A DNA stretch of 64,000 bases. Source: an uncultured Candidatus Saccharibacteria bacterium. GTDB taxonomy: Bacteria; Patescibacteriota; JACPGU01. The stretch covers positions 9,849 to 73,848 of the forward strand of contig CAYHEQ010000001.1 in assembly GCA_964355795.1 (NCBI GenBank). The letters run 5' to 3'. Position numbers and translations under genes: made by a program. Of this stretch, positions 287-45,332 are shown piece by piece; the first letter of the stretch is position 1; each line of letters starts with the position of its first letter. A model generated the notes under the pieces. The model saw nothing but the letters and a program-made list of their open reading frames with translations. It was not told where the DNA came from and searched no databases.

Positions 287-1159
287 CTACATTATTACAG
301 TAGCTTTTTCATATAACATCGGTAAGCAATCCTGCCTCATACGAAATTTTGTTCCATGATTGTGGCCAGTACGAGCATCAAAATCAACAAGAATTTTGCC
401 TTCTTCAAGCGCTTTCAAAAATCCTTCGAAACTGAATTTTTGTAGCATGGTTACTCTCGTGTAATGGTAAAATTCTTTTTTGCGTCTAATCTCTACCTCT
501 GCCTGTACATAAAAAGTGTTAAGCAATTTTGTTCCTGCTTTATGCTCCAGATCATCAAAACCCCAATAGGGCTGGGGGTTAAGTTCGCCCAACCCAACCT
601 GTTTTTCAACTTGTTTTAGCCACGCCTTATGTCTTTTATCTACACACTGTGAGTCAAATGAAATTAAAATTTTTCGCTCTTCGCGGTCGATTATAACCCT
701 AAATCCCCTATCACTCCTTGAGTTTCCATGAATAGTCTGACGAAAGCTCATTTCGCCTTTTGGATATTTCTTCCCATCTTCCTGATGGGCCCAACCATAT
801 AAAGGCAATAAAACTTGTGAGACAAAACGAATTGCGCGAGGAGATGGTTCGGTGTGAAAGAGTGTCGTGAGTGATGTTGAGTTTAGGCGTTGCGCTTTAA
901 GCTCCCATTCAGCAGCATTTGGAATCGGTAGATTGTTTTCTTCAATACCAAGCAGATCCTCCAATGTATTGCCGATTCCACCGTGGTTCCCCCTTCGCGC
1001 ATTTGGAATAAACCCCATTTCGGAGATCTCTTTGAGTTTTGTTACCAAAGCTGGTTTCGTGTAAATAGTTGGTTTTTTCATATTAAAATAGCTTAGTTTG
1101 TGCTTTATGATTTTTAATTCTTTTTTTTGCTGATTCGCAATACTCTGGCGAAATATCAA
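287..1159 (-). CDS. Type II restriction endonuclease, MutH/Sau3AI-like fold (MvaI/BcnI-type family)
   Basis: Motif GNHGGIGNTLEDLLGIEENNLPIPNAAEWELKAQR matches the MutH/Sau3AI/MvaI-BcnI signature (G..G..LE.LLG....N..PD....ElK). It lies directly downstream of the methyltransferase on the same strand. The true start is probably the MKKPTIY Met at 1081, which removes the 77-bp overlap. Confidence 0.55.
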   Translation of the reverse strand: MIFRQSIANQQKKELKIIKHKLSYFNMKKPTIYTKPALVTKLKEISEMGFIPNARRGNHGGIGNTLEDLLGIEENNLPIPNAAEWELKAQRLNSTSLTTLFHTEPSPRAIRFVSQVLLPLYGWAHQEDGKKYPKGEMSFRQTIHGNSRSDRGFRVIIDREERKILISFDSQCVDKRHKAWLKQVEKQVGLGELNPQPYWGFDDLEHKAGTKLLNTFYVQAEVEIRRKKEFYHYTRVTMLQKFSFEGFLKALEEGKILVDFDARTGHNHGTKFRMRQDCLPMLYEKATVIM

Positions 1160-1829
1160 TGCCGATATAATTACGCTTGAAGTTTATTGCAGAAATCGCC
1201 GTTGTGCCAGAACCCATAAATGGATCGAGAATAGTCTTGGCGTTTGTTGATGAGATAATCTTGTCTATAAGCTTTATAGGAAAGGGAGCGGGATGCCCAT
1301 TCTTCATTTCCTGGGACACCTCCCAAATATCACCGAGAGCATTTGCTTTTTTTACTAGTTCAAATTTTGGCTTTGCAATAAGATAAATTACCTCATAAGT
1401 TGGCAAGAAATAGCCTGCGTTAAAATTTAAACCACCAGCGCGCTTCCAAATAATAACTTGCCGAACTGGAAATCCATCAACTATATCTTGGCGGTCTTGC
1501 AATAATCCTCCTTGAACACGCCATTTATGATTATAGAAGATTGCCCCGTTATCTGGAATAATTCGCATCATTTCAGTTAGACAATCTCTTTGCCACTTTA
1601 CATATTTTTCATGTGGCATATTGTCGTCATAATGTGAGTACCCATTTTGCAGGGCGGCATTCGCCCATTTTCCGCCCCTTCCATCTTTCATGCCATTACC
1701 AGTAGAATTTTTAAGATTATATGGTGGCGAAGTCACAATTAAATCAACCGAGCCGTTCGGTATTTTTTTCATTATATCTATTGCGTCTCCGCATATAATC
1801 CTATCTATAAACTCATGCGTGTCTTGCAT
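1083..1829 (-). CDS. DNA methyltransferase, beta-class N4-cytosine/N6-adenine type (motif IV SPPY precedes motif I DPFMGSGTT)
   Basis: TSPPYNL catalytic motif followed C-terminally by the AdoMet motif FMGSGTT. This motif order is that of beta-group N4C/N6A MTases such as M.MvaI and M.PvuII. Confidence 0.8.
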   Translation of the reverse strand: MQDTHEFIDRIICGDAIDIMKKIPNGSVDLIVTSPPYNLKNSTGNGMKDGRGGKWANAALQNGYSHYDDNMPHEKYVKWQRDCLTEMMRIIPDNGAIFYNHKWRVQGGLLQDRQDIVDGFPVRQVIIWKRAGGLNFNAGYFLPTYEVIYLIAKPKFELVKKANALGDIWEVSQEMKNGHPAPFPIKLIDKIISSTNAKTILDPFMGSGTTAISAINFKRNYIGIDISPEYCESAKKRIKNHKAQTKLF

Positions 1830-1975: not shown

Positions 1976-3979
1976 TTATCTCTTGATCAATTTGGCCGCT
2001 TTGCTCAAAGCGTTGCTTTCTTTCAAGTAAATGGAAGAAGCGATAGCGCCAAACAAGGCAAGCAAGATCAGAGCGGCAATACTACCGGGCGTACCCGTAT
2101 CAGGCAAAGTACCGCCATCAGCCATAAGGTTGAAAGTGGCCAAGCTTGATACTTGAGCGGCGCCATCAGCGTTACCGGTGCCGGTAAAGCTCAATTGCGT
2201 AATATTGCTTGGCGTGTCCTGTTTTACTTTGACGGTGAAGTCCAGATAGCCGGCAGCTCCTTTGGCTAAAGAGCCGATAGAAGCTCCGGAAGAAATCACG
2301 CTGTCAGAGGTAGAAACAGTAGAGCCATTTACTACCACCTTCATACTACCGGCAATGTATTGTAGATTGGCTGGCAGGCTGTTGGTGATGCGAACATTGG
2401 TCAAGTCGCTATCGCCGTTGTTGGCAAAAGCCACACGAATGACAGCTGATTGACCGCGCTTGATAGTCAGCGCGCGCACATAGTTTTTGTTCACCGCGTC
2501 GTAGATAGAAGAAGTGATAGACAAAGACTTGCCGACTGGGGTAATATCCCCCTCTACCGTCACCTTACCACCATTGTCGTTAAGATTAACGGCGCCACTA
2601 TTAGAATAATAGTAGTTTGAGGTTGAGTAAGGACCACCAGCAACAGCGTTGGAGGCAACACGAACTTTGTAGTTCACATAGCCCCAGCTACCTACTGGGA
2701 TGTCAGGCATAACAACACCATTGGCAGAAACAATCGCATCGTTTAGGCCAACCCAAGTGGCGTTAGCGAAATAGAAACGAGAGTAATTACCAACATATTC
2801 CAAACCTGCTGGGATTTGAGCCTTGAAGACTCCACCCGTTAGAGGCGTAGTGCCAGTGTTGCTTACTTGCACTCTGTAGAACAGCTCTTCGCCACGCTTG
2901 GCAGTAGCTGAACTGACATAGTACTGATCATGACGAGTTTCGTTCAAAACTGTCGAAATGATACGAGCAGAAGCAACGGGGGCAGGCGTAACTCCAGAGA
3001 CCTCTACCGTCACCTTACCACCATTGTCGTTAAGATTAACGGCGCCACTATTAGAATAATAGTAGTTTGAGGTTGAGTAAGGACCACCAGCAACAGCGTT
3101 GGAGGCAACACGAACTTTGTAGTTCACATAGCCCCAGCTACCTACTGGGATGTCAGGCATAACAACACCATTGGCAGAAACAATCGCATCGTTTAGGCCA
3201 ACCCAAGTGGCGTTAGCGAAATAGAAACGAGAGTAATTACCAACATATTCCAAACCTGCTGGGATTTGAGCCTTGAAGACCCCACCCGTTAGAGGTGTAG
3301 TGCCAGTGTTGCTTACTTGCACTCTGTAGAACAGCTCTTCGCCACGCTTAGCGGTAGCTGAACTGACATAGTATTGATCATGACGAGTTTCGTTCAAAAC
3401 TGTCGAAATGATACGAGCAGAAGCAACAGGGGCAGGCGCGGTATTGCCATCAGATGGAGTGCCAGCTATTACCGTTGTCTTAGCTCTACTGTCGCCAATA
3501 TTAACGCCACCACCATTAGCAAAAACTTGAGTGGTTGGGGCAACTACAGTACCGGCAGTAGCGCTAGAAGCTACTTGGGTCTTGAAAGAAACATACACAT
3601 GAGTCATTGGCGGAACATCCTGCAAATTAACGCCATTTTCCGCAATAAGAGCATCCGACAATTGGACGACACTATTAGCGGTAGCGCCAACAGGCTTCCA
3701 GTAAAACTTTCCGCTACCAGGAACAAAATTTAAGCCAGCAGGAACAACAACGCGAGAGACAACTCCCTTAAGAGTTGTGGCCGTAACATTGTCGATAATA
3801 ACACTATACATCAGCGTATCGCCAGGCTTGGCAGAAGTTTGAGTAGTCCACTTCTTGTCGCTAGAAACATTGGCTACTTCGGAAGCTACAGAAACTGAAC
3901 CAGCGATAGCCAAAGCAGGAGCGACAATAGCCGTAATCATAGCGAAGACGGCTACGGAATTGATAAGTTTTTTTAACAT
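1976..3979 (-). CDS. LPXTG-anchored cell-surface protein with internal 150-aa tandem repeats
   Basis: N-terminal signal peptide MLKKLINSVAVFAMITAIVAPALA. The C-terminus carries LPDTG, then a hydrophobic stretch and a KR tail, which is a sortase sorting signal. Two identical 150-aa modules lie in between. Confidence 0.75.
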   Translation of the reverse strand: MLKKLINSVAVFAMITAIVAPALAIAGSVSVASEVANVSSDKKWTTQTSAKPGDTLMYSVIIDNVTATTLKGVVSRVVVPAGLNFVPGSGKFYWKPVGATANSVVQLSDALIAENGVNLQDVPPMTHVYVSFKTQVASSATAGTVVAPTTQVFANGGGVNIGDSRAKTTVIAGTPSDGNTAPAPVASARIISTVLNETRHDQYYVSSATAKRGEELFYRVQVSNTGTTPLTGGVFKAQIPAGLEYVGNYSRFYFANATWVGLNDAIVSANGVVMPDIPVGSWGYVNYKVRVASNAVAGGPYSTSNYYYSNSGAVNLNDNGGKVTVEVSGVTPAPVASARIISTVLNETRHDQYYVSSATAKRGEELFYRVQVSNTGTTPLTGGVFKAQIPAGLEYVGNYSRFYFANATWVGLNDAIVSANGVVMPDIPVGSWGYVNYKVRVASNAVAGGPYSTSNYYYSNSGAVNLNDNGGKVTVEGDITPVGKSLSITSSIYDAVNKNYVRALTIKRGQSAVIRVAFANNGDSDLTNVRITNSLPANLQYIAGSMKVVVNGSTVSTSDSVISSGASIGSLAKGAAGYLDFTVKVKQDTPSNITQLSFTGTGNADGAAQVSSLATFNLMADGGTLPDTGTPGSIAALILLALFGAIASSIYLKESNALSKAAKLIKR
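2551..3440. repeat. Near-perfect tandem duplication (2 x 450 bp) inside the LPXTG gene
   Basis: Landmarks recur at an exact 450-bp offset (cctctaccgtcaccttaccacc at 2551 and 3001; tgtcaggcat at 2701 and 3151). Only about 3 mismatches separate the copies. Confidence 0.9.
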
Positions 3980-4115
3980 AATTTTTCTCCATTTTCAAAT
4001 CGCTTGTTTTTTTGCTTTTTTGCGCCTATCGACCAGGATTTCTCCCAGTAAGACGTTTTGGCTTATGGCCAGAAAAGCGAAGCGATTAATGATTAATAAT
4101 TAATTTTTAATTTCT

Positions 4116-4196
4116 TATTTTTCCCGACGCGTTATATTTTTTAATATAATGAAGTCGGGATCCCGATTTCGCGATAGCGAACATCGGGACTTATTT
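4116..4196. repeat. About 82-bp conserved intergenic element, copy 1 of 2 (copy 2 at 30785..30866), containing palindrome TCGGGATCCCGA
   Basis: tatttttcccgacgcRYtatattttttaatataatgaagtcgggatcccgatttcgcgatagcgaacatcgggacttatttt is shared between the two loci. Both copies sit upstream of minus-strand surface-protein genes. Confidence 0.8.
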
Positions 4197-4245
4197 TTTT
4201 AATTTAATGCTCAATATCCAGTTGAGGAAAACAAAAAGAGAGAAT

Positions 4246-4281
4246 GTGGCCCCGACGATACCTTCGGTATGTCGGGGCCAC
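4246..4281 (-). terminator. Strong GC-rich hairpin with UUCG tetraloop, followed by a U-run on the minus strand; likely terminator of the 4398..5825 gene
   Basis: gtggccccgacgataccttcggtatgtcggggccac is a perfect 11-bp outer stem with an inner ATACC-TTC-GGTAT hairpin. On the minus strand it is followed by AUUCUCUCUUUUUGUUUUCC. Confidence 0.6.
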
Positions 4282-4397
4282 AAAGAAAATACAAAGGAAA
4301 CCTTACGGCAGTTGGGGATCTCCCGGGAAGGAGAAACCGCCACTAAGGCTAAAATTGAACAACATGGCGGTTCACCTCCTTCCTTAGAGGAGAACCC

Positions 4398-5825
4398 TCA
4401 GTCAGACTCCGGGTGATCGGCGCCTTGGCTGAAAAAGTCGGTGGCGCCGCTTCCGGCCTGGTTGAAAATGTTGGCCGTGTCGGTAAGCGCGGCGGTCGTT
4501 GCCGCGTTGTTCATCTGGGTCTCCGCCGGCGCAGTTGTCGCCCACGAAATTGTCGCCTGATTGGCCGAGCCCACCCCTGTCTGGGGCTGACTGGACAGTT
4601 GCGCCGAATTCTCCGGCGTGGTGTGGTCCCGATCGGGATCACCTTCCGGTATTTCCGGATGATCGGCTCCGCCGGTCTGGCCTCCGGATGTCTGCCCGCA
4701 ATTTCCGCATCCGCGGTCCTTGCCGAACCAGTCGTCCTTGGCCCAATCGGGCAGAATTAAATCGCCCAGCTGGTAAGTGGTCGCCACTCCGCCAATTACG
4801 CGGAAAACGTTGCCCTCTTTCCAGCCCTGACGTATTGCGTCGGTGGTCATGGAGCGCAGACCTCGTTGAGATCCATTCCAGATCTTTTTGAAGCCTTTCT
4901 CCTTCTTGGCCGCCGGAGCGTTGCAAACACCGCTCCACTTCCTCACCCAGTCCCAGTCTTCCTTCTTATAGCCGGGTGAGCCGATGTAGGGCACCAGCGC
5001 TGCGATGGCCTTGCAGAAACGGGTTTGGTCTTCCAATTTGAAAGCGGTAGAGGCTTCCGACCAAAGCGGCCCCAAGTCTTTCCCGCTCTTCCCGCCCGGA
5101 GAACCGAAATCCTTCTTGGGCTCCTGTTTTCCGGCGGTCTGCTCGCCCGTATCCTTCGGCCCCGTCTTGACGCCCGCGCCCGCGTTCTGCGACGCTGGCT
5201 TCTTGCCCGCGCCCGTTTCAGGCTTCCAGCCGACCAGAGCCTTGTTCAGATTCGTCTGGCCGTCAATTAAGGCCGGCATTTGATTGTCGGCCATCTTGTC
5301 GACCTTGACCTTGATTCCTTTCACATTCTCGGCCATTCCCGGGAGATGAGAAGCGTGCCCTTCGATCTTCTTGACATTCTTGTCGACTCGATCGAGAGCA
5401 TTGGACATGTGAGGCAAAACTTTCGTGTTCTCCTTGATGTCCCTGATGTCCTTGACCGCTCCCGGAAGACCATCCGTATTGCTCTTGATGCCCTTCACGT
5501 CATCGGCCATTCCCGGAAGCACGGACAGCTTGTCCAGCATCTTCTCTTCCGTGGTTGGCTCGCCCGCCTCCACTTCCGGCGCCAGAATGTTTTCCGCCAC
5601 TGAAGCGGGACTCTGCGCCGTTTTCATCTCCCGATTGTTCTTAAGCCAGAAAAAACTCGAGGTGAGAATCACCCCGACGAGAAGCGCCAACCCGATGGTC
5701 AACCAATGCTTTCTGTTCACTTGAACACCTCCGAAATTTTCTAGCGGTGGCGATGAGCCACAGCCGTCCTGCTCCGTTTTTGAAAAAACGGTTCGGCTTT
5801 CTTCCAAATTCAAACCGTTCCCCAA
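4398..5825 (-). CDS. Hypothetical membrane-anchored protein with degenerate about 17-aa repeats (LPGMADDVKGIK-like), encoded in a GC-rich segment
   Basis: One N-terminal TM segment, repeated LPG[MA]..VKGIK motifs, and a Gly/Cys-rich C-terminal region. Local GC is about 60% against about 40% for the window. A GTG at 5721 with a GGAGGTG RBS is an alternative start. Confidence 0.55.
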   Translation of the reverse strand: MGNGLNLEESRTVFSKTEQDGCGSSPPLENFGGVQVNRKHWLTIGLALLVGVILTSSFFWLKNNREMKTAQSPASVAENILAPEVEAGEPTTEEKMLDKLSVLPGMADDVKGIKSNTDGLPGAVKDIRDIKENTKVLPHMSNALDRVDKNVKKIEGHASHLPGMAENVKGIKVKVDKMADNQMPALIDGQTNLNKALVGWKPETGAGKKPASQNAGAGVKTGPKDTGEQTAGKQEPKKDFGSPGGKSGKDLGPLWSEASTAFKLEDQTRFCKAIAALVPYIGSPGYKKEDWDWVRKWSGVCNAPAAKKEKGFKKIWNGSQRGLRSMTTDAIRQGWKEGNVFRVIGGVATTYQLGDLILPDWAKDDWFGKDRGCGNCGQTSGGQTGGADHPEIPEGDPDRDHTTPENSAQLSSQPQTGVGSANQATISWATTAPAETQMNNAATTAALTDTANIFNQAGSGATDFFSQGADHPESD

Positions 5826-6389
5826 CGGTTTTGAACTCTTCCGAAAGCGCTCATCCCTTCACCTCGCCTCCCTTAGTAATATTGCGAAGCGAAAAGAAAT
5901 TTTTCACACTGTTGAGAGAAACAAAAAAACCAAAAAATAAACAACTTTGTAATTACATAGTAATTAGCTCATCCCGAATGCTCGGGATTCGCGTAACTAA
6001 TAGTAACTTGTTGCTTTTTTGGTTTTTATTTTTTCCGCACCTATCCGTATGAATCCGTTTAGAATCCGTGGATATCCGTGCTTTTCGTTCCCCTCAACTG
6101 GATATTTGAGTTTTGCTTGCCTTGTTATTAAAGAACTGACGTGGCATTTATTTCAACCACAAAAAACCCGGGGTAGTCTGGACAGATTACCTCTGGTTTT
6201 TTATGTTCGCAATAAAAATGCTTTTCGCCATGTTCATCTGGTGAAAATTAGTCTTTTCAATTTCTTGGCCATTTTAACACACTTCTCGGGAACCTGTCAA
6301 GGCTTTTTCTCTTGGGCTAGCCAAAAACAAAAGAGAGCCCACGCCCTCCTTGGAAACTACTACTAATTTAACTCAAAAAAACTACCCCG

Positions 6390-7523
6390 TCAAGAGGCTT
6401 CCTCTTCCGGCCTCTCTACCTGAACTTCGTCCAGTAGCTCCCTCTCCACTCCGCTGATTTTCACCACATCTTTGTCAATTTTCTTGAATTCCTTGTGCGC
6501 GACGTTATAGGCGTTAACGGTCGTGGACAAATTACCGCCCAATTTTTTCATATACTCGTCATATTTTCTGATATGCGTATCCAAATCCCCCACTCTTTTA
6601 ATGATTTCCTGCGTAGATTTCTGGATTTGCATCTGCTTCAAGCCCTGCAGAATAGTCTGGAGAAAAGCGTAAAAAGAATTAGGACTGACGATATTGACCC
6701 GTTTTTTGCCCGCGTATTCTATGAGATCGGCAGCATTCACTCCCGCGTCGCCCACTTTATTGATCAAAAGATCGTAATAAATCGCTTCCGACGGGATGAA
6801 CATCAGAGCAAAATCCATCGTCCCATTTTTCGGTTGAATATACTTGGCCGTCTCATCTATTCTATTTTTCAGATCCTGCTTGAAGGCTTTTTCTAGCTTT
6901 TCACGCACATCTTTTTCTTTACACTCTATTATTCTCGTATAATTTTCCAACGAAAATTTGGAATCAATAGGAATTATTTTGTCTTGGAGGAATATCGCCG
7001 CGTCCACGACTAAATCCGCGCCTTTGTCATCTTTACCAACCTTATACTGCATCTCATAAACACTGGGCGGCAAAACGTTTTTTAACACTGTTTCCAAATA
7101 ATATTCGCCGAGCACTCCCCGTCTTTTCGGATTTTGCAAAATATCCTGGAGAGATTGCAATTGGTCTGCGAATCCTACCACCTGTTTGTTCGTTTCGGAG
7201 AGTTTCGTCAGCTGTTCCGTCACATCAGAAATGATTTTCGCTGACTGGCCAAATTGTATTTGCATGGACTTCTGCGACTCCCCCAATTTGGTGTCCATCG
7301 TCTCCGTCAGTTTTTGCAACTGATTTTGGAGCAGTAATAATTGTCCATCGTTTTTCTCCTCCGGCTTTTTCTTGAGCGCAAAAAACATCGCGACTACCGA
7401 AATCGCCAATAACCCGACAAGACCAACCAAAATAAATAAAAGCGTATTCATTAAACAATCATACAAAAAATAGCCATATTTTGCAATAAATAAAACTACC
7501 CCCTTTCGGGGGATAAGTTCCAT
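6390..7523 (-). CDS. rmuC: DNA recombination protein RmuC
   Basis: N-terminal TM segment, long coiled coil, and the C-terminal RmuC domain (IPIDSKFSLENYTR ... MFIPSEAIYYDLL ... NIVSPNSFYAFLQTI). The likely true start is MNTLLFIL at about 7451. Confidence 0.8.
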   Translation of the reverse strand: MELIPRKGVVLFIAKYGYFLYDCLMNTLLFILVGLVGLLAISVVAMFFALKKKPEEKNDGQLLLLQNQLQKLTETMDTKLGESQKSMQIQFGQSAKIISDVTEQLTKLSETNKQVVGFADQLQSLQDILQNPKRRGVLGEYYLETVLKNVLPPSVYEMQYKVGKDDKGADLVVDAAIFLQDKIIPIDSKFSLENYTRIIECKEKDVREKLEKAFKQDLKNRIDETAKYIQPKNGTMDFALMFIPSEAIYYDLLINKVGDAGVNAADLIEYAGKKRVNIVSPNSFYAFLQTILQGLKQMQIQKSTQEIIKRVGDLDTHIRKYDEYMKKLGGNLSTTVNAYNVAHKEFKKIDKDVVKISGVERELLDEVQVERPEEEAS

Positions 7524-24414: not shown

Positions 24415-24487
24415 TTTGCAACTATGTAATTGCTTAAGCGATGCGAATCTACAAATAACATGCGAATATAGCGAATGTCTATGCGAA
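24415..24487. repeat. GCGAAT-rich repeat, left flank of the GxxExxY gene
   Basis: taagcgatgcgaatctacaaataacatgcgaatatagcgaatgtctatgcgaatc. Confidence 0.7.
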
Positions 24488-24844
24488 TCAAATTTTTGTA
24501 TTTAATATCCTATTGGGCTTAAGATGGCTATTTCTAAAATTAACTATCATCCCCAACTTCAAATTATTAATTTCTAGGTATCTTTTTACTTGAAAATAAT
24601 CTTCTTTGTCCGCAAAATTTTTTGCTTTGCATTCTACTACTATTTTATCTTCTATGAGAAAATCCATTCTATTCCCACTGCCATCATTTAATTCTCTTTT
24701 ATAAGCAACACCTTTATTCTGCAGTTCCTTCTCTATTTCATCACAATATTGTTTTTCTTTACAGAATCGCCCTAGTCTATTTTGAACTGCAAAAAATATC
24801 CCATTTATTTTGTAAGACAATTCCGGATAAATTACATCCTTCAT
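24488..24844 (-). CDS. GxxExxY-family protein (PD-(D/E)XK superfamily)
   Basis: INGIFFAVQNRLGRFCKEKQYCDEIEKEL ... IVVECKAKNF ... LKLGMIVNF fits the GxxExxY family profile. Confidence 0.65.
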   Translation of the reverse strand: MKDVIYPELSYKINGIFFAVQNRLGRFCKEKQYCDEIEKELQNKGVAYKRELNDGSGNRMDFLIEDKIVVECKAKNFADKEDYFQVKRYLEINNLKLGMIVNFRNSHLKPNRILNTKI

Positions 24845-24849
24845 TTATT

Positions 24850-24910
24850 ACTTATTATTCGCATTATATTCGTAGATTCGCATGAGAATTCGCATTATTC
24901 GCATCGCTTA
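24850..24910. repeat. GCGAAT-rich repeat, right flank of the GxxExxY gene
   Basis: ttattcgcattatattcgtagattcgcatgagaattcgcattattcgcatcgcttattac. Confidence 0.7.
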
Positions 24911-27076
24911 TTACTGCCTGGCTTTGAATACTTCTTTGGCAAATCCCGGTGGCGGGGACAAGACTACTCGCGGATCGTATTGGAAATCTTCGGCTGGTTG
25001 CCAATCCAGATATTTAGGATCGTTAGGCTTTATTGAACCCTTGCAAATTGGTGGCAAGGCGTTATCGCAAGACCAGAGTAGCTCTTTCGGACCAATGTAA
25101 TTGCGATAAAGTTGGAAAGCTTCTGATCGCGAAGAAACATTCCACCACCCGCTAGCGATGACCACTCCATGAATGACTAATTGTTTGTCATAAGTCTCTC
25201 CGCCACAAGCAGCGGGGGTAATAGCGCAAGAACCGCTAATAAAGCTCCCCTTTTGACCGGTATTGGCTTTGTCAGAATAGATGAAGAATACGCCCTCCAG
25301 CCTTCCTACCCTCGGACTGACATTGACATTGCCATTTTTGACAATGAAGCCCACCATATCTTTGTTTTTGTTCTCGTATTGCAGACTGTCGTTAATAGAA
25401 AGATCGCCATCAACAACAACCGTTCCTCTGCCACGCAGGGTCATCGGCGAACCGCTATTGTTACCTATCGTCAAACCGTCACTATAATAAAGAGCGCCTC
25501 CTTCAGGGATATTGGTGGGATTGAGGTCTATTGTCGCGCTAGTGAGACTACCTTTGCCATAACTAGTTTTGGCTATTTTGGCGCCATTAATTAGTTTCGT
25601 CCGACTTTTTTCTATAATTCCGCAAGCCGAATTTTCTTGACAGACTTTGTCTTCATCTAGACCAAAACTGGAAGGACTATTAGAGCTGATGCCGTATGCG
25701 CCCACCGTCCAATCGCTCGCTGATTTTGATTGAGACGCTATATTGCCACCAGAACCGATGATGTAGAGAACGCTAGAAGGATTTCTCAAGTTCACTCCCT
25801 TGCGACCAAAAACGCTACCCCCGGTGGATTCTTTGAGGAAAGAATAAGTAACGATGTCTATGTCTGTTTTGGTAGTTTGCTCTGTCCCCGTCGTAAAGGT
25901 CGCGGTATTGGTAATTACTGAATTGGCTGTCACCTCTTTGGCAATAGTTACTTCTACTTCAAAATGATAATTGGTGGCGTGGACCAAAGAATTGATCGTT
26001 ATGGACAAAGAATTAGTCCCCGCAGTAGCGACGCTATAACTAGCGGAAATGATGTTAGCGCTTTTTACCCTGATACCCTTGATGGCAGACGCTGGCGTAA
26101 CCGTATCGTTGATGGTCAAAGTTCCTCCATCGGTAATATTATCCACCGCTACATCAAGATCGTAAGTGGTGGTGAAATCAATGCCCGGATTAATGAGGAG
26201 AGAAGTATCGTCGCTTTTACTCGCTGTTATCAGAGCCGACATCGGACTGATGAGCAAGACTTCCGCCGCCGAGTATTGCCAATGAATCTTGTCTTCAGAA
26301 ATAGCGGCTACTCCTTTGACTAAATACATGGCGGGATCAACCAAGGAGTTGCCCTTGTTGTCAAAAACTAGCGCTTCCGCCGTAGAACGATCAATATTTT
26401 TGAGATCGGACATTTTGTAAAAAGTGAGCGCGAGATTAGTCGTAGAATTGGCAAAAACAGTAAATCTCCTTCCCTCTTTCGGTTGCGGAACATAATATTG
26501 AACGCCTCCGATGGTTATCGTATCAGATCCGCCACTATCCACGGAGATGAAGTGTGTGCCGACTTTCAGATTAGAAATATTAAAATTCCCACTAGTAGGC
26601 GTGGCCGTTACCCCATCTATCAAAAGAGGGGCGATGATCGGACCGCTGTCGCTATTTTTCATCTCAATGCTGGCCGATCCCAAACCGATTGCTTCCGTAG
26701 CTGTCAACATTACTGTCTTGGAAATTTCCGCGCTAGCACCATTGATGCAAAGTAATTTGTAGATGGCCGAACCTTGCGGAACAAAAGTTTTCACTACTCC
26801 AAGAGGAGCGCCCCAACTACTGACGATAGTGGCGCCTAAGTCATCTATAATCCTGCATGAAGTAGCGCTGGAAACAGTGTAATAGAGAGTTATTGGGTCC
26901 ATCGGGTTTTTGATAGTGACATTTTTGAATGGCAGACCGCTAATACCATCAAAAACAAATTTCGTGATCGTCGGCTCGCCGACCGCCCGCGCGGAAGTGG
27001 CGCCAAAAATAATCCCCGCTACCAACGCTGGGAGAAAAACTAGCCCGAAAATAATGGATGAATATCTTTTGTTCAT
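24911..27076 (-). CDS. Large secreted protein (721 aa), possible adhesin
   Basis: N-terminal signal peptide (IIFGLVFLPALVAGIIFGATSARA). Ser/Thr/Gly/Asn-rich beta-type composition. No catalytic motifs. Confidence 0.65.
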   Translation of the reverse strand: MNKRYSSIIFGLVFLPALVAGIIFGATSARAVGEPTITKFVFDGISGLPFKNVTIKNPMDPITLYYTVSSATSCRIIDDLGATIVSSWGAPLGVVKTFVPQGSAIYKLLCINGASAEISKTVMLTATEAIGLGSASIEMKNSDSGPIIAPLLIDGVTATPTSGNFNISNLKVGTHFISVDSGGSDTITIGGVQYYVPQPKEGRRFTVFANSTTNLALTFYKMSDLKNIDRSTAEALVFDNKGNSLVDPAMYLVKGVAAISEDKIHWQYSAAEVLLISPMSALITASKSDDTSLLINPGIDFTTTYDLDVAVDNITDGGTLTINDTVTPASAIKGIRVKSANIISASYSVATAGTNSLSITINSLVHATNYHFEVEVTIAKEVTANSVITNTATFTTGTEQTTKTDIDIVTYSFLKESTGGSVFGRKGVNLRNPSSVLYIIGSGGNIASQSKSASDWTVGAYGISSNSPSSFGLDEDKVCQENSACGIIEKSRTKLINGAKIAKTSYGKGSLTSATIDLNPTNIPEGGALYYSDGLTIGNNSGSPMTLRGRGTVVVDGDLSINDSLQYENKNKDMVGFIVKNGNVNVSPRVGRLEGVFFIYSDKANTGQKGSFISGSCAITPAACGGETYDKQLVIHGVVIASGWWNVSSRSEAFQLYRNYIGPKELLWSCDNALPPICKGSIKPNDPKYLDWQPAEDFQYDPRVVLSPPPGFAKEVFKARQ

Positions 27077-30768: not shown

Positions 30769-30784
30769 ATATTTCTTTATTTTT

Positions 30785-30866
30785 TATTTTTCCCGACGCA
30801 CTATATTTTTTAATATAATGAAGTCGGGATCCCGATTTCGCGATAGCGAACATCGGGACTTATTTT
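30785..30866. repeat. About 82-bp conserved intergenic element, copy 2 of 2, abutting the TPR gene start
   Basis: About 95% identical to 4116..4196. Contains the TCGGGATCCCGA palindrome and the AT-rich TATATTAAAAAATATA box. It ends about 20 bp before the ATG at 30768. Confidence 0.8.
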
Positions 30867-36608: not shown

Positions 36609-36790
36609 ACAGGGGCGGAAGTCGCAACTTTACATCGGGAGAAACTGATCAGTTTGCGTTTTTGGCAGGGGCTGAGGGAATCGAACCCCCGACCTCGGTT
36701 TTGTCCCGACGATTGCAGGGCAATGTCGGGATCCCGATCCTCCGATGCAAAATCGGAGCGTCGGGAGAGACCGATAAGTTTGCGTTTTTA
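36609..36790 (-). other. Two tRNA 3'-end-like fragments with no 5' halves (pseudo-tRNA or att-site remnants) downstream of tRNA-Trp, with an internal TCGGGATCCCGA palindrome
   Basis: 36663..36700 encodes GGGGGUUCGAUUCCCUCAGCCCCUGCCA, which is a T-arm, acceptor 3' strand and CCA. No matching 5' acceptor strand exists. 36609..36629 is a degenerate copy of the tRNA-Trp 3' end. Direct repeat GATMAGTTTGCGTTTTT at 36645 and 36773. Confidence 0.5.
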
Positions 36791-37184: not shown

Positions 37185-37214
37185 TCACCCTGCGGGTGAC
37201 CACCCGTAGGGTGG
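37185..37214. repeat. 30-nt double-hairpin element, copy 1 (TCACCC-tgc-GGGTGA / CCACCC-gta-GGGTGG)
   Basis: tcaccctgcgggtgaccacccgtagggtgg. It sits exactly at an anticodon-loop position (GACU | element | UAAAUCU). Confidence 0.75.
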
Positions 37215-37618: not shown

Positions 37619-37648
37619 TCACCCTGCGGGTGACCACCCGTAGGGTGG
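37619..37648. repeat. 30-nt double-hairpin element, copy 2 (identical to copy 1)
   Basis: tcaccctgcgggtgaccacccgtagggtgg, directly 3' of a tRNA-Tyr-like 5' half. Confidence 0.75.
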
Positions 37649-37889: not shown

Positions 37890-37920
37890 CCACCCCTGCG
37901 GGTGGTCACCCGAAGGGTGA
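37890..37920. repeat. Double-hairpin element, copy 3 (inverted, loop variants), next to a duplicated tRNA-Thr D-arm fragment
   Basis: ccacccctgcgggtgg tcacccgaagggtga. The stems are conserved and the loop nucleotides changed. It is preceded by tgctctaccaactg, a partial copy of the tRNA-Thr D-arm. Confidence 0.7.
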
Positions 37921-37937: not shown

Positions 37938-38009
37938 AGCCACCTGTCGGGCTCGAACCGACGACCTACCGCTTACAAGGCGGTTGCTCTACCACTGAGC
38001 TAAGGTGGC
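37938..38009 (-). tRNA. tRNA-Thr (anticodon TGT)
   Basis: GCCACCU acceptor, anticodon stem ACCGC/GCGGU with loop CUUGUAA, T-loop UUCGAGC. Confidence 0.85.
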
Positions 38010-38072
38010 CCGAAAACCACTGCCTGCCCCGACCATGGCGTCGGGGAGCTAAGGTGGCAAATCTACAAAAAA

Positions 38073-39727: not shown

Positions 39728-39860
39728 AGAAGATTATTATACCATTTCTCCAAATATGGTATACTAGGTTCTACGGATTACAGATAGTACAGATGTACGG
39801 ATAATGCAAACATATCCTATCTGTAATCTGTAAATCCGTATTATCCGTAATCCGTAGAGT

Positions 39861-42914: not shown

Positions 42915-42964
42915 ATAACTTCACATAGCATACTCAATAAAACATCCCACCACAACACCACGAC

Positions 42965-42992
42965 ATTCTCACATTCGCAAGAATGTGAGAAT
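42965..42992. promoter_or_regulatory. Palindromic operator ATTCTCACATTC-gcaa-GAATGTGAGAAT (copy 1), upstream of the SpoU methyltransferase gene
   Basis: Perfect 12-bp inverted arms. Identical arms recur at 43280 and 45305. Confidence 0.7.
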
Positions 42993-43279: not shown

Positions 43280-43307
43280 ATTCTCACATTCTCAAGAATG
43301 TGAGAAT
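43280..43307. promoter_or_regulatory. Palindromic operator (copy 2), immediately upstream of the ArsR gene
   Basis: attctcacattctcaagaatgtgagaat. Confidence 0.7.
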
Positions 43308-43309
43308 AT

Positions 43310-45253
43310 CTAATTTCTGTATATTTTATCTACTAGCCCCAATTTAACAAGACGCGACCTGATAGATCCTTTTGTTCTTTCAAACATGGTTGCAAGATTG
43401 ACGGTAGATTTACCTTCTCTAAAAAGCTTTGTTAATTTTTCATCCTGCGCTTCATCCCATGGCAAGTAAGCGCTTGGATGCTTTTCTCGCATTTCATCAA
43501 GATCAACTTTCTTGTCAGTAATTGCTTTTCGTTCTTCTCCTATCAACATTCTCGCAATTCGTAATTCTTCATATGAATATTTCCCATTAAATTTTTCAAA
43601 AACCGGCGAGAGCCTCATCGTATCAAGCTCTCTAAATGTTGCTTGTATTTGCGAAATATTTTTGGCTAGAGAATCCGAAACCAAACGAGCAAAGACATCA
43701 GCAAGGAGTATTTTCTCCCCTTCTACTAAATGTTCTATGTGATCTAATATCGTTCGCTCGTGGAGAGAACGCACTTTGGCTATTTCAATAATATTTTTGC
43801 CCTCCAACCATAGTTTCAGGGTTTCTTGGTATGTATCTGTTTTCTTTTTCTTGACCTTCAGAGAGTGCTGGTTGTTTTCTGCCAATGGCGTAATATGTCC
43901 GCCACAAGCAATGATAAAGTTTTCATGCGTTTTAACCAATTCTGTCTGATTGACCAAAGAATATCTCCTTTCTACTTCAAAAGATGCCTGGCGAAATGAA
44001 TTATCTTGAGTCAAAACATCCGGACTCACTCGAAAAGCCATTTCATTCCAGCCGAGAAGATGGACACCAGAAAGTCGTCGCACGCGAGAAAGCGCCACAT
44101 ACCCCTGTCCAAATTCAAAAACACCCGAGAGATCCATCACCGCTTCGTCCAAACTCATGCCCTGACTTTTGTGCACAGTAATGGCCCATGCGAGACGCAA
44201 TGGCAGTTGAGTGAGACGCGCGCGCGCTTCACCGCCTACCTCTATCGTCCAATCCATCGGCTTAACGAGAATATGCCTGCCATTTTTTGTTTTAACTACC
44301 GGATGCCCGTTCTCCTCATTAAATGATGCAACTACTCCCAGAGTACCATTGGCAAATCCTTCGCGAGGATTATTTTTTGTGAACATCACCACCGCGCCTT
44401 TTTTCAAATGTAATATCTCCGGCGAAAGACAACCCTTTTTCATTGATGCGACCAATGATTTATGCCCCCTTGAACCCATCGTAAAGGTATGATTGTTGTC
44501 AGTAAGATTCCCCAACATCATATCGTTAATTCGATCCACATCGGCATTATGTGAAAAAAGTTTCGTCATACCATCCGACAACATATCGCGCGTCACTTTT
44601 CTTTCTTTAATATGCTTGAAATGATTTTCGTCAAAATTATTTCGCCTGATAGCCGATAGTAAAGAAAGAAATACAGGATCATCCTGACGATACTGCTCGT
44701 CCAAATAACAAGTAGTTAGCTCCGCTTTTTCCCAAGCAGGCGAAGCGTAAGCAAAAGGACTTTCCTCCTCATCGCCCAAAAATGTCGTTTGCCTATTCAT
44801 ACTTTCATCTTTTCTAACAATAGGCGGGAGCTGAAAAAAATCACCTACCAAAACTATCTGCATACCACCAAATGGTTTTTCTTTGTTTTTGATAGCTCGG
44901 CATACCATATCCACCATAGTAAGCGTTGTCGCCGACAACATAGATACTTCGTCAATGACGAGAACTCGCGCATCCTCAATACGATCGGTAATATATTTGC
45001 TTGAGACAATATCGTTAATATCGCTTTTGCTTAGTTTATCTTTGATGCCAATCCCCGACCACGAATGGATGGTCATCCCGCCAAGATGCGTCGCTGCGAT
45101 ACCTGTTGAAGCTGTAATTGCTGGCTCTATTTTATAAGAACGCAAATACCGCACATATTCATTAACAGTATGTGTCTTGCCACTCCCAGGTTCTCCAGTC
45201 AAAAAAACATTGGCCCCAGATTTCAATATATTCAGAGCTTGATCTTGTGTCAT
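43310..45253 (-). CDS. Pif1/RecD-like superfamily 1 helicase with C-terminal HTH region
   Basis: GEPGSGKTH Walker A, VLVIDEVSM Walker B, FFQLPPI Pif1 motif, GDFFQL. 647 aa. Confidence 0.75.
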   Translation of the reverse strand: MTQDQALNILKSGANVFLTGEPGSGKTHTVNEYVRYLRSYKIEPAITASTGIAATHLGGMTIHSWSGIGIKDKLSKSDINDIVSSKYITDRIEDARVLVIDEVSMLSATTLTMVDMVCRAIKNKEKPFGGMQIVLVGDFFQLPPIVRKDESMNRQTTFLGDEEESPFAYASPAWEKAELTTCYLDEQYRQDDPVFLSLLSAIRRNNFDENHFKHIKERKVTRDMLSDGMTKLFSHNADVDRINDMMLGNLTDNNHTFTMGSRGHKSLVASMKKGCLSPEILHLKKGAVVMFTKNNPREGFANGTLGVVASFNEENGHPVVKTKNGRHILVKPMDWTIEVGGEARARLTQLPLRLAWAITVHKSQGMSLDEAVMDLSGVFEFGQGYVALSRVRRLSGVHLLGWNEMAFRVSPDVLTQDNSFRQASFEVERRYSLVNQTELVKTHENFIIACGGHITPLAENNQHSLKVKKKKTDTYQETLKLWLEGKNIIEIAKVRSLHERTILDHIEHLVEGEKILLADVFARLVSDSLAKNISQIQATFRELDTMRLSPVFEKFNGKYSYEELRIARMLIGEERKAITDKKVDLDEMREKHPSAYLPWDEAQDEKLTKLFREGKSTVNLATMFERTKGSIRSRLVKLGLVDKIYRN

Positions 45254-45304: not shown

Positions 45305-45332
45305 ATTCTCACATTCTTGAGAATGTGAGAAT
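45305..45332. promoter_or_regulatory. Palindromic operator (copy 3), about 50 bp upstream of the Pif1-like helicase gene
   Basis: attctcacattcttgagaatgtgagaat. Confidence 0.7.

Follow-up and report, generated by a model that had tools for sequence, protein, structure and literature searches.

Probable horizontal acquisition of a single-gene compositional islet in an uncultured groundwater Saccharibacteria chromosome

A GC-rich gene stands in the chromosome of an uncultured groundwater member of Saccharibacteria, and its composition raises the question of whether it is foreign or native. Members of this lineage are very small epibionts whose genomes are reduced, and gene flow into such genomes is, to our knowledge, poorly documented. 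The window (the whole stretch of DNA analysed, 64,000 nt) has a mean GC of 0.431; a value of 40% had been supposed for the genome. Positions 4246-5776 are read here as a single-gene compositional islet gained by horizontal acquisition, with a probability of roughly 0.55.

Composition and boundaries of the segment

Sharply bounded, with a log-likelihood ratio of 60 for the fit of two change points. GC in 300-nt windows is 0.58-0.63 between 4350 and 5250 and 0.32-0.45 in the flanks. The original prediction of a strong departure from the surroundings is borne out by these windows, by the change-point fit and by the deviations in GC and GC3; a uniform profile was not recovered on recalculation. 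The limits given there for the GC-rich stretch agree nearly exactly with the fitted ones (Table 1).

The gene has a GC of 0.584, which is 4.4 SD above the 47 other ORFs of the window (their maximum 0.494), and a GC3 of 0.717, which is 4.3 SD above them (maximum 0.576, in a core PBP1 gene). Scoring of codon usage, proposed earlier as a check, thus places the gene outside the range of the other ORFs. GC3 is even along the gene (0.67-0.76), and in the annotated frame GC3 > GC1 > GC2. Synonymous codon choice is shifted for nearly all amino acids; AAG makes up 78% of the Lys codons in the gene and 33% in the other ORFs. Amino-acid content cannot account for the anomaly, because the anomaly is located at synonymous sites.

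These features bear on the reading that the gene is native, passed on vertically and kept GC-rich by selection or local mutation bias, with the flanking repeats as local regulatory or structural DNA. Such an origin is unlikely. Third codon positions show the largest shift, which extends to the synonymous choice of nearly every amino acid, and protein composition offers no explanation for it; none of the 47 other ORFs comes near; the boundaries are sharp. Depletion of CCWGG in the segment (1 site observed, 2.9-4.4 expected) is consistent with a native gene, the motif being scarce in the rest of the genome too, and the numbers are small. As a test of age, restriction-site avoidance was dropped, the CCWGG counts being too small. 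Under a native origin, selection might act on, e.g., mRNA structure or a repetitive, low-complexity protein.

Table 1. Features of the locus, in window coordinates.
Feature	Position	Strand	Remarks
GC-rich segment	4246..5776	none	Maximum-likelihood boundaries; GC 0.577 inside, 0.415 outside
Left inverted repeat AATATCCAGTTGAGGAAAACAAAAAG	4213..4238	+	23/26 match to right arm
Hairpin 2	4245..4282	-	-31.1 kcal/mol, z = -8.3; followed by AUUCUCUCUUUUUGUUUU
20-codon ORF MLFNFSLSGGFSFPGDPQLP plus stop	4303..4365	-	Shine-Dalgarno AAGGAGGTG at 4381-4373, 7-nt spacer
Hairpin 1	4313..4400	-	Starts at the stop codon; -44.5 kcal/mol, z = -6.1
Protein-coding gene, 440 aa	4398..5720	-	GTG 5720 to stop TGA 4400-4398
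Repeat-unit copies at DNA level, 41 nt	5305..5519	-	Three copies, 63-80% identity to reference copy
Shine-Dalgarno GGAGGTG	5726..5732	-	5 nt upstream of GTG 5720
AT-rich upstream region inside the repeats	5777..6080	-	Native-like content
14-codon upstream ORF	5854-5810	-	
Partial third copy of repeat core	5911-5927		In upstream region
AT-rich palindrome, 29-nt arms	5919-6033		Surrounds TCCCGA..TCGGGA hairpin (5972-5987)
4 x ACGGAT, spacing 10-11 nt	6043-6079		Within upstream region
Right inverted repeat AATATCCAGTTGAGGGGAACGAAAAG	6081..6106	-	23/26; with one indel, continues outward for about 5 nt

The gene, its predicted product and the downstream hairpins

The longest ORF reading spans 4398-5825, starts with TTG at 5825 and gives 475 aa. 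The start is most likely GTG 5720, judged from the sequence, because a Shine-Dalgarno stands upstream at suitable distance and the N-terminus is positively charged and followed by a hydrophobic helix. The 475-aa protein of the original prediction holds as the longest possible reading and gives way to the likelier 440-aa form. The NCBI call of 409 aa begins downstream of the N-terminal hydrophobic helix. By its sequence features it is a true coding gene, because a 440-codon frame is open, a Shine-Dalgarno precedes the GTG, an N-terminal helix is predicted and the repeat copies differ both synonymously and non-synonymously. It is the sole long ORF between the inverted repeats in the coding frame; the other ORFs there, none above 130 aa, overlap it and come from reading the GC-rich DNA in alternative frames. 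Beyond the TGA the frame stays open for 68 further codons, ending in a hydrophobic stretch and KLKK. Readthrough of this stop was rejected, the open frame being probably due to chance; TGA ends 9/48 ORFs and the genome carries prfB.

The protein comprises, in order, an N-terminal signal-anchor helix (predicted at residues 3-30), repeats, a Gly/Lys/Pro linker, a mostly helical, Trp/Cys-containing domain of about 120 aa and a disordered tail. Five degenerate repeats of the LPG(M/A)..V/I-K-x-I-K type begin at residues 68, 85, 102, 126 and 148 (440-aa numbering). Both the LPG-type repeats and the membrane anchor had been foreseen. The Gly/Cys-rich tail had been too, and it reduces to a short GCGNCG patch: the whole protein has 4 Cys, and Thr, Ala, Gln and Asn abound in its tail. 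With single-sequence AlphaFold2 the mean pLDDT is 46 over the full length and 58 over residues 205-350. The product is predicted to be a bitopic envelope protein in which the five repeats, helical and degenerate, form an extracytoplasmic stalk between the signal anchor and a flexible linker that leads to the domain and tail. The protein weakly resembles membrane-anchored coiled-coil surface proteins, in that repeated amphipathic helical units come after an N-terminal anchor; the likeness to coiled-coil models such as Pfam DUF7310 is below threshold (14.9 bits, cut-off 40) and does not make it a member. The C-terminal domain matched no known fold. A role at the cell surface, e.g. in contact with a host or particles, is most plausible because of the topology of the protein and its neighbour genes.

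A homology search, also proposed earlier, was run on the gene product and returned the protein itself, hence neither ordinary vertical homologs nor a donor. It matches only itself in a word-indexed search of 5.8 billion clusters. Exhaustive HMMER against 1.84 billion representative proteins adds one eukaryotic kringle-repeat protein, rejected as spurious because a single 44-aa stretch that occurs four times raises its score. No homolog from a donor lineage occurs in either collection, and no donor can be named. No match to the product was obtained with tblastn against phages and plasmids, no related locus in searches of viral and metagenome loci, and nothing above sub-threshold noise in Pfam, PHROGs, NCBIfam and PDB sequence searches (the DUF7310 score above; ArfC, E = 0.08). 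Orphan status is uninformative on origin, because a 721-aa control ORF of native composition in the same window is likewise a singleton; the same caution holds for orphans of any deeply branching lineage. Orphan proteins are normal in this one, a point in favour of a native gene.

Two hairpins follow the gene. Hairpin 1 carries AAGGAGGTG and the ATG of a small ORF in its 5' arm and the complementary GGCGGUUUCUCCUUCC in its 3' arm. Hairpin 2 is a probable intrinsic terminator. The U-run in its tail AUUCUCUCUUUUUGUUUU is interrupted, and a strict-consensus terminator scan does not list the hairpin; its stem core, CCCGAC..GTCGGG, is common to native hairpins of the genome. The UUCG-tetraloop terminator of the original prediction corresponds to this stable hairpin at 4245-4282, with the correction that UUCG reads on the + strand and the loop on the gene strand is CGAA/GAA. 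Transcription would end at the two hairpins in tandem.

The small ORF had been placed at 4364..4302 behind AAGGAGGTG with a 7-nt spacer; ORF, Shine-Dalgarno and spacer are present, one base away (4365..4303). It is most likely not a gene, because its Shine-Dalgarno and ATG are paired in hairpin 1 and similar chance ORFs are common. The pairing holds in both the minimum-free-energy and the centroid structures (-44.5 kcal/mol), and GGAGG with a start 4-10 nt downstream that gives an ORF of <60 aa occurs at 23 places in the window. The ORF would be a by-product of the purine-rich arm of hairpin 1, not normally translated.

Translation to a functional micropeptide, e.g. coupled to termination of the main gene that melts the outer stem, is very unlikely. 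The complete AAGGAGGTG lies at proper distance from the ATG, and the hairpin opens at the main stop codon, so terminating ribosomes would partly unfold the stem; against this, Shine-Dalgarno and ATG belong to the inner stem, 17-35 nt beyond the stop, and would be out of reach of a terminating ribosome. The six AAGGAGGT sites of the window lie mostly away from gene starts. As to conservation of the peptide, proposed earlier as a check, the collections searched hold no related locus. The peptide has no hydrophobic run of transmembrane length, and its GG motif, held to be of interest, is at residues 9-10 of 20 and receives no support. Double-glycine leaders are about 15-24 aa long, with GG at the end and a cognate peptidase-domain ABC exporter nearby. 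That class was rejected for this peptide, the GG being too early; no peptidase-domain ABC exporter is present among the ORFs scanned. A type I toxin was likewise rejected. A perfect Shine-Dalgarno and an ATG within a stem do not make a gene.

Flanking repeats, neighbourhood and independent assemblies

The genes around the islet, in a variable interval from rmuC to prfB, code for RmuC, a DUF11/LPXTG protein, an N4/N6 methylase, an MvaI/BcnI endonuclease and the prfB product; the interval also houses an MvaI/BcnI-type restriction-modification system and an LPXTG surface protein. Transposase, integrase and resolvase domains are absent from the 45 ORFs scanned (1 to 58.8 kb of the window), and no recombinase is encoded over 12 kb on the right side or 4 kb on the left. 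The absence of a mobility gene agrees with a native origin. In the nearest sampled GTDB genomes RmuC identity is only 50-57% and synteny is nil; of 15 other window proteins examined, 0 occur in the flanks of the RmuC relatives. Rfam gives zero matches in 3900-6500 and 5 tRNAs, nothing else, in the whole window.

Gene and 5' leader are bracketed by non-palindromic 26-nt inverted repeats with AATATCCAGTTGAGG-type ends, one lying outside the terminator and the other outside the leader. These repeats do not figure in the original prediction. Dinucleotide-preserving shuffles of the window give zero matches to the repeat pattern, which was derived from both arms themselves. Pairs of inverted repeats matching at >=23/26 within 3 kb number 7 in the whole window, the islet pair included; five of the six others are copies of self-palindromic hairpins, and the sixth (24441/24858) belongs to inverted ATGCGAAT arrays around a small ORF. 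No further copy of the repeat is found in the window at <=3 mismatches. No target-site duplication is present; the flanks ...TTTAATGCTC| and |TGAGTTTTGC have no common direct repeat at any plausible boundary. The 17-base repeat core has 10 matches in viral contigs, in three unrelated coding contexts, which were taken as chance and set aside; the 20-base core has 0 matches in JGI metagenome contigs.

As a sub-case of horizontal acquisition, 4213-6106 could be a non-autonomous transposable cassette, mobilised in trans by a transposase from elsewhere that would recognise the 26-nt terminal inverted repeats. The repeats (23/26, longer with an indel) just outside terminator and leader point to this, as does the single passenger gene with no transposase within. 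The cassette is doubtful all the same: target-site duplication is absent, neither a second copy nor a cognate IS exists in the 64 kb or in the public collections scanned, and the 300 nt adjoining the right repeat look native, not foreign.

These 300 nt hold, besides the elements of Table 1, three small hairpins. The TCCCGA hairpin and the ACGGAT array both recur elsewhere in the genome and, with the terminator stem, form a set of native motifs that favours the native gene.

Four independent contigs, three from ENA Hainich H52 0.1 um replicates with the accessions ERZ1292616-18 and one from a Logan assembly, are 99.8-100% identical and reach from rmuC across the right repeat to 340-400 nt inside the GC-rich gene. 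The right-hand junction is confirmed by them, and the gene part so covered has a GC3 of 0.70. Each of these contigs, which stem from the same population, carries the gene. Three of the four terminate at 5316-5379, with coverage of about 3-5x as judged from contig names. A second allele occurs at this break, with 5 clustered, mostly non-synonymous SNPs at 5333-5356, in the repeat stalk. No independent contig covers the left junction, and exact-protein look-ups for it (the DUF11 protein, the 475-, 440- and NCBI 409-aa forms, a 69-aa antisense ORF) found nothing.

A chimeric artefact of the metagenome-assembled genome would draw on the three contig ends, their low coverage and a left junction seen in a single assembly. 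It is hardly credible. Four assemblies reproduce the change from AT to GC on the right as well as the beginning of the gene, at 99.8-100% identity; across the break the frame stays open, GC3 is alike (0.70 and 0.72) and the repeat motif is unchanged; two false joins would be needed, each restoring the native flank.

Nor is it at all probable that the inverted repeats are crossover sites of an inversion switch, flipping the gene relative to outside promoters in phase variation. Inverted repeats do surround a surface-protein gene, and the population is heterogeneous within that gene. Against a switch, a recombinase is absent (12 kb right, 4 kb left), the repeat has no internal dyad typical of recombinase core sites, and 4/4 independent contigs show one orientation at the right junction, a weak test with assembled contigs. 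The bidirectional terminator at 6170-6193, between the islet and the nearest outside promoter-like site, also separates that site from the element.

Origin and comparison with known systems

Horizontal acquisition is the best reading and is not proven. It is favoured because the anomaly lies at synonymous sites, the boundaries are sharp, inverted repeats flank the gene and the interval houses restriction-modification and surface-protein genes. The original suggestion of horizontal acquisition holds as to synonymous-site composition and sharp boundaries; donor, homologs or close relatives that could prove it were not found.

The gene would have entered by transfer from a donor that cannot be named, landing in the rmuC-prfB interval. 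From GC3 0.72 and the 58% GC of the gene, the donor may have a genomic GC of about 58-60%, an estimate and not a computed value. In layout the repeat-bracketed gene and leader would correspond to a mobile insertion cassette that has no transposase. Because both the terminator and the 300 nt upstream have a native look, the foreign part is perhaps just the coding region and hairpin 1, placed under local control sequences. The gene looks well integrated, because the terminator stem, the TCCCGA hairpin and the ACGGAT array recur elsewhere in the genome. A more far-reaching proposal, improbable as it stands, is that the 1.9-kb unit is a transposase-less cassette active in Saccharibacteria, which brought in the gene of a surface protein from an organism of higher GC, conceivably the host of the epibiont, and that the allele differences at 5333-5356 reflect diversifying selection at a host-contact surface.

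A recently gained envelope protein in a reduced epibiont genome is a candidate for host or particle contact. If the repeats mark a mobile cassette, they would provide a concrete vehicle for gene flow into Saccharibacteria. At present the locus amounts to one orphan gene in one population, with no named donor; its value is that of a clean, independently assembled compositional islet.

The attC site of integron cassettes is an imperfect palindrome with RYYYAAC at the 5' end and GTTRRRY at the 3' end. The locus shares with such cassettes an orphan ORF of atypical composition directly before an imperfect palindrome of about 88 nt. It differs in having neither cassette array nor integrase, and the ends of its hairpin have no properly ordered cores. 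An attC reading of hairpin 1 was rejected: the outer stem pairs GGGUUCUCC with GGGAGAUCCC, and the sole AAC/GTT-type core, CCCCAAC, follows the stem on its 3' side, so that the order is wrong.

Invertons are represented by Hin-hix, Gin-gix, fimS and the Bacteroides invertons. Inverted repeats of about 26 nt that bracket a segment linked to a surface protein are common to them and the islet. The islet segment holds a whole gene and terminator rather than a promoter, has no nearby recombinase or repeat dyad and is seen in one orientation.

Mobile insertion cassettes (MICs), as defined in PMC4337579, include MIC231 of Bacillus cereus and the TnXax1-derived MICs of Xanthomonas. The islet resembles them in its passenger gene, in the absence of a transposase and in terminal inverted repeats whose length, 26 nt, is IS-like, and differs in having no target-site duplication, no cognate IS, one copy and repeats unmatched in the collections scanned.

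Horizontally acquired islets are the nearest comparison. Distinct from these in the present case are a terminator and upstream motifs of host type; a homolog in a donor, a landmark such as a tRNA or integrase and a close relative that could show the gene to be absent were not found. Shared with them are the deviation in GC and GC3, sharp boundaries, restriction-modification and surface-protein neighbours and a lack of relatives in the lineage. The locus is probably a new example of this known kind, the horizontally acquired single-gene islet.

Coding sequence and base composition

The gene on the minus strand at 4398..5720 (the target gene) encodes a membrane-anchored protein. A 440-codon open frame in DNA of 58% GC exceeds chance by far, and the gene of the original prediction is real. 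Its start is corrected. The longest ORF begins at TTG 5825 and encodes 475 aa, the length first proposed. GTG 5720 is preceded by GGAGGTG 5 nt upstream and gives a product beginning MNRKHWLTIGLALLVGVILTSSFFWL, with positive charges followed by a hydrophobic helix. The public gene call (409 aa) uses an internal ATG start and leaves out this N-terminal membrane helix. GTG 5720 is the better start, and the product is most likely 440 aa in length.

The predicted LPG[MA]-type repeats are present as five degenerate units after the anchor (Table), helical at low confidence in the structure model. Copies diverge at synonymous and non-synonymous sites alike. In protein order, the units lead into a linker rich in Gly, Lys and Pro. 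Beyond it, ~120 residues include several Trp as well as three of the protein's four Cys and are predicted to be mostly helical with one beta-hairpin (pLDDT up to ~80). The C-terminal tail is rich in Thr, Ala, Gln and Asn, not in Gly and Cys as first described. The frame stays open for 68 further codons beyond the TGA (4191–4400), ending in a hydrophobic stretch and KLKK. Readthrough was considered and rejected; the open frame is probably due to chance, since the genome has prfB and TGA is the stop codon of 9 of 48 ORFs.

The GC content is 0.58–0.63 across 4350–5250 vs 0.32–0.45 in both flanks (300-nt windows); that of the window is 0.431. In a two-change-point likelihood fit, the GC-rich block, or islet, spans 4246–5776 (0.577 vs 0.415), nearly the limits proposed from the sequence. 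GC at codon positions 1, 2 and 3 of the target gene (minus-strand frame) is 0.569, 0.467 and 0.717. The other ORFs (n = 47, at least 120 aa) have a GC of 0.429 ± 0.036 (maximum 0.494) and a GC3 of 0.447 ± 0.063 (maximum 0.576, in the core PBP1 gene). The target gene lies 4.4 SD (GC) and 4.3 SD (GC3) out, beyond the range of all 47, and the recalculated profile upholds the strong compositional departure claimed earlier. Synonymous codons are shifted in nearly all amino acids (AAG 78% vs 33%, CAG 74% vs 38%, TTC 82% vs 39%, target gene vs other ORFs), and GC3 is even from end to end (0.67–0.76); amino-acid composition cannot yield such a pattern.

The homology search proposed with the original prediction gave no relatives. 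Only the protein itself was returned in every sequence and profile search, apart from a eukaryotic kringle-repeat protein, rejected as a homolog because its score is due to four copies of one 44-aa stretch. Fold searches with low-confidence models gave no match. A control ORF of native composition (24911–27076, 721 aa, without Pfam domain) likewise matched only itself. Poor sampling makes orphan status the norm in this lineage, and it speaks neither for nor against foreign origin.

Genomic setting and the bracketed unit

The window is part of a chromosome of Saccharibacteria (TM7, Patescibacteria). It carries a type IV pilus cluster, PBP1, aminoacyl-tRNA synthetases, an LPXTG/DUF11 surface protein and an MvaI/BcnI-type restriction-modification pair, a gene set typical of Saccharibacteria. 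Relatives of its RmuC occur in Saccharibacteria or Nanosyncoccaceae genomes only, at 50–57% identity (one-genome-per-species GTDB contigs). CCWGG is strongly depleted in the window outside the islet (30 observed vs ~71 expected), which fits an MvaI-type (CCWGG) specificity of the neighbouring endonuclease/methylase pair. CCSGG is mildly low (34 vs 45–54 expected). The DUF11 protein has a C-terminal LPDTG sorting signal and an exact internal duplication of ~147 aa.

Features of the target locus and of other repeats (window coordinates)
Feature	Position	Strand	Sequence or property
Restriction-modification genes	287–1829		
DUF11 protein gene	1976–3979		
88-nt dispersed repeat	4110–4197; 30779–30866		96.6% identical
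Left inverted repeat	4213–4238	+	AATATCCAGTTGAGGAAAACAAAAAG
Hairpin 2	4245–4282		-31.1 kcal/mol; then AUUCUCUCUUUUUGUUUU
20-codon ORF (corrected)	4365..4303	-	MLFNFSLSGGFSFPGDPQLP
Hairpin 1	4313–4400		begins at stop codon; -44.5 kcal/mol, z = -6.1
Repeat units of the protein	residues 68, 85, 102, 126, 148		LPGM, LPGA, LPHM, LPGM, MPAL
14-codon upstream ORF	5810–5854		MSAFGRVQNRWGTV
Right inverted repeat	6081–6106	-	AATATCCAGTTGAGGGGAACGAAAAG
Terminator-like hairpin	6170–6193		bidirectional
Promoter-like site	6300–6271	-	TTGACA-18-TAAAAT with TG; 11/12
Inverted arrays	24441–24910		ATGCGAAT
Palindromic hairpins amid tRNA genes	37185–37214; 37620–37645; 37894–37920		TCACCCTGCGGGTGACCACCCGTAGGGTG, GC-rich
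26-nt palindromes	42964–42992; 43281–43306; 45306–45331		TTCTCACATTCTCAAGAATGTGAGAA, near-identical

The target gene is bracketed by inverted repeats, a feature missed in the original prediction. The two arms are alike at 23 of 26 positions; with one indel, the similarity runs on outward for a few bases. They enclose a unit of 1,894 bp, ordered on the gene's strand as right repeat, AT-rich leader of 300 nt, gene, hairpin 1, hairpin 2, left repeat. Seven inverted pairs of at least 23/26 within 3 kb occur in the whole window, this pair included; the six others comprise five pairs formed by copies of self-palindromic hairpins and one that belongs to inverted ATGCGAAT arrays. These arrays flank ~390 nt, apparently holding a small minus-strand ORF, between a pilN-like gene and the 721-aa orphan ORF.

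The GC-rich block does not fill the whole unit: next to the right repeat lie 300 nt of AT-rich DNA with motifs that recur elsewhere in this genome. A TCCCGA..TCGGGA hairpin of the leader is found four times in the window vs 0.07 expected. Four ACGGAT copies stand at 10–11 nt spacing (6043–6079), and similar arrays occur at 1957–1969 and 39773–39855. With such a leader outside the block, the foreign DNA may be the coding region and hairpin 1 alone, amid native control sequences. A native gene of aberrant composition, the main rival reading, would likewise carry native control sequences; set against a GC3 4.3 SD out, it is unlikely.

ACGGAT/ACAGAT heptamer-like arrays lie in three intergenic regions (6043–6079, 1925–1970, 39773–39855), one just within the right inverted repeat and one directly past the DUF11 stop codon. 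The ACGGAT total is at chance (26 vs 26.2 expected, window), yet the copies are clustered; the arrays look like operator or iteron-type arrays. The structured 5' leader holds three small hairpins, the first of them overlapped by a 14-codon upstream ORF that has a GAGGTG of its own; for this putative ORF a leader-peptide role is conceivable. A strong promoter-like site is followed after ~80–100 nt by the terminator-like hairpin. Judged from sequence, the two could mark the ends of a small RNA, or of a short transcript, in the interval from rmuC to the right repeat; Rfam gave no match for 6160–6300.

Four contigs from separate assemblies were retrieved by exact-protein look-up of RmuC (Hainich groundwater well H52, 0.1 μm fraction, ENA ERZ1292616-18; Logan assembly of ERR3858112). 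All are 99.8–100% identical to the window. Three span rmuC, the right repeat, the leader and the first 340–400 nt of the target gene (GC3 0.70), in the same orientation each; the fourth (L018) ends at 6254, short of the right repeat. The right-hand AT-to-GC junction is thus not an artefact of a single assembly, and a chimeric origin of the GC-rich stretch is highly improbable, even with all three gene-entering contigs (L017, L019, L020) ending inside the gene, at 5379, 5360 and 5316. These ends fall within 63 nt, in the fourth repeat. One contig carries a second allele at 5333–5356, with five substitutions in 24 nt (H122P, A123D, M129V, A130S and one synonymous; four amino-acid changes in nine codons) and no donor copy in the window. 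Together these findings suggest that the contigs break because strains differ in the repeat stalk, which may be hypervariable at strain level. One independent contig begins within the DUF11 gene, as expected where an assembly is interrupted by a repeat.

Hairpins and the 20-codon ORF

Hairpin 1 has the arms GGAAGGAGGUGAACCGCCAUG (5') and GGCGGUUUCUCCUUCC (3'). The predicted 20-codon ORF exists, with a perfect Shine-Dalgarno and slightly shifted coordinates; its standing as a gene is not upheld. Shine-Dalgarno and ATG form one side of the long hairpin 1 stem. In the window, GGAGG with a start codon 4–10 nt on opens an ORF of <60 aa at 23 places, and the majority of the six AAGGAGGT sites lie away from gene starts. 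The peptide has no transmembrane-length hydrophobic run. A double-glycine leader reading was rejected, the GG being too early. The ORF is probably a by-product of the stem; translation by coupling, for which the Shine-Dalgarno and the adjacent stop codon would speak, is very doubtful.

Hairpin 2 is likely the terminator. It was not listed by a strict consensus scan because its U-run is interrupted. It is very stable, as predicted; the UUCG tetraloop is on the plus strand only, and the mRNA loop is CGAA. Hairpin 2 shares its stem core, CCCGAC..GTCGGG, with a hairpin family of this genome (10 in window vs 1.1 expected); one member (36705–36730) is of the same length, with a different yet paired inner stem.

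Hairpins of this core also adjoin tRNA genes and tRNA fragments at 36640–36770 and 38009–38060. A 3'-half-like tRNA piece (ggttcgattccctcagcccctgcca, ~36650–36690) lies downstream of tRNA-Trp, and the tRNA-Thr gene is directly preceded by a second copy of its own first 13 nt (GCCACCTTAGCTC). Insertion or recombination at tRNA genes may have left such fragments behind. Three copies of another palindromic hairpin, TCACCCTGCGGGTGACCACCCGTAGGGTG, which is GC-rich, also lie amid the tRNA genes. Both copies of the 88-nt repeat are intergenic, directly upstream of a minus-strand gene (DUF11/LPXTG protein; TPR protein), each with two hairpins with CCCGA..TCGGG stems; the repeat may act as a terminator/promoter module or encode a small RNA. 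The TTCTCACATTCTCAAGAATGTGAGAA palindromes bracket a small putative HTH regulator gene (by eye) and a Pif1-type helicase gene (43310–45253), and are probably operators of that regulator.

Origin of the gene

Acquisition of one envelope-protein gene by horizontal transfer, as originally proposed, is the best explanation (probability about 0.55); the mechanism may have been of cassette type. The original observation holds after corrections to the ORF start, small-ORF coordinates, loop strand and tail description. Mobile insertion cassettes are passenger genes within IS-type inverted repeats, without transposase (PMC4337579). The 1,894-bp unit differs on three defining features: no target-site duplication was found at the repeat ends, a search of the window, of viral contigs and of metagenome contigs turned up neither a further repeat copy nor a cognate IS, and the 45 ORFs scanned include neither a transposase nor an integrase. 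In layout it is alike, with a passenger gene and bracketing inverted repeats.
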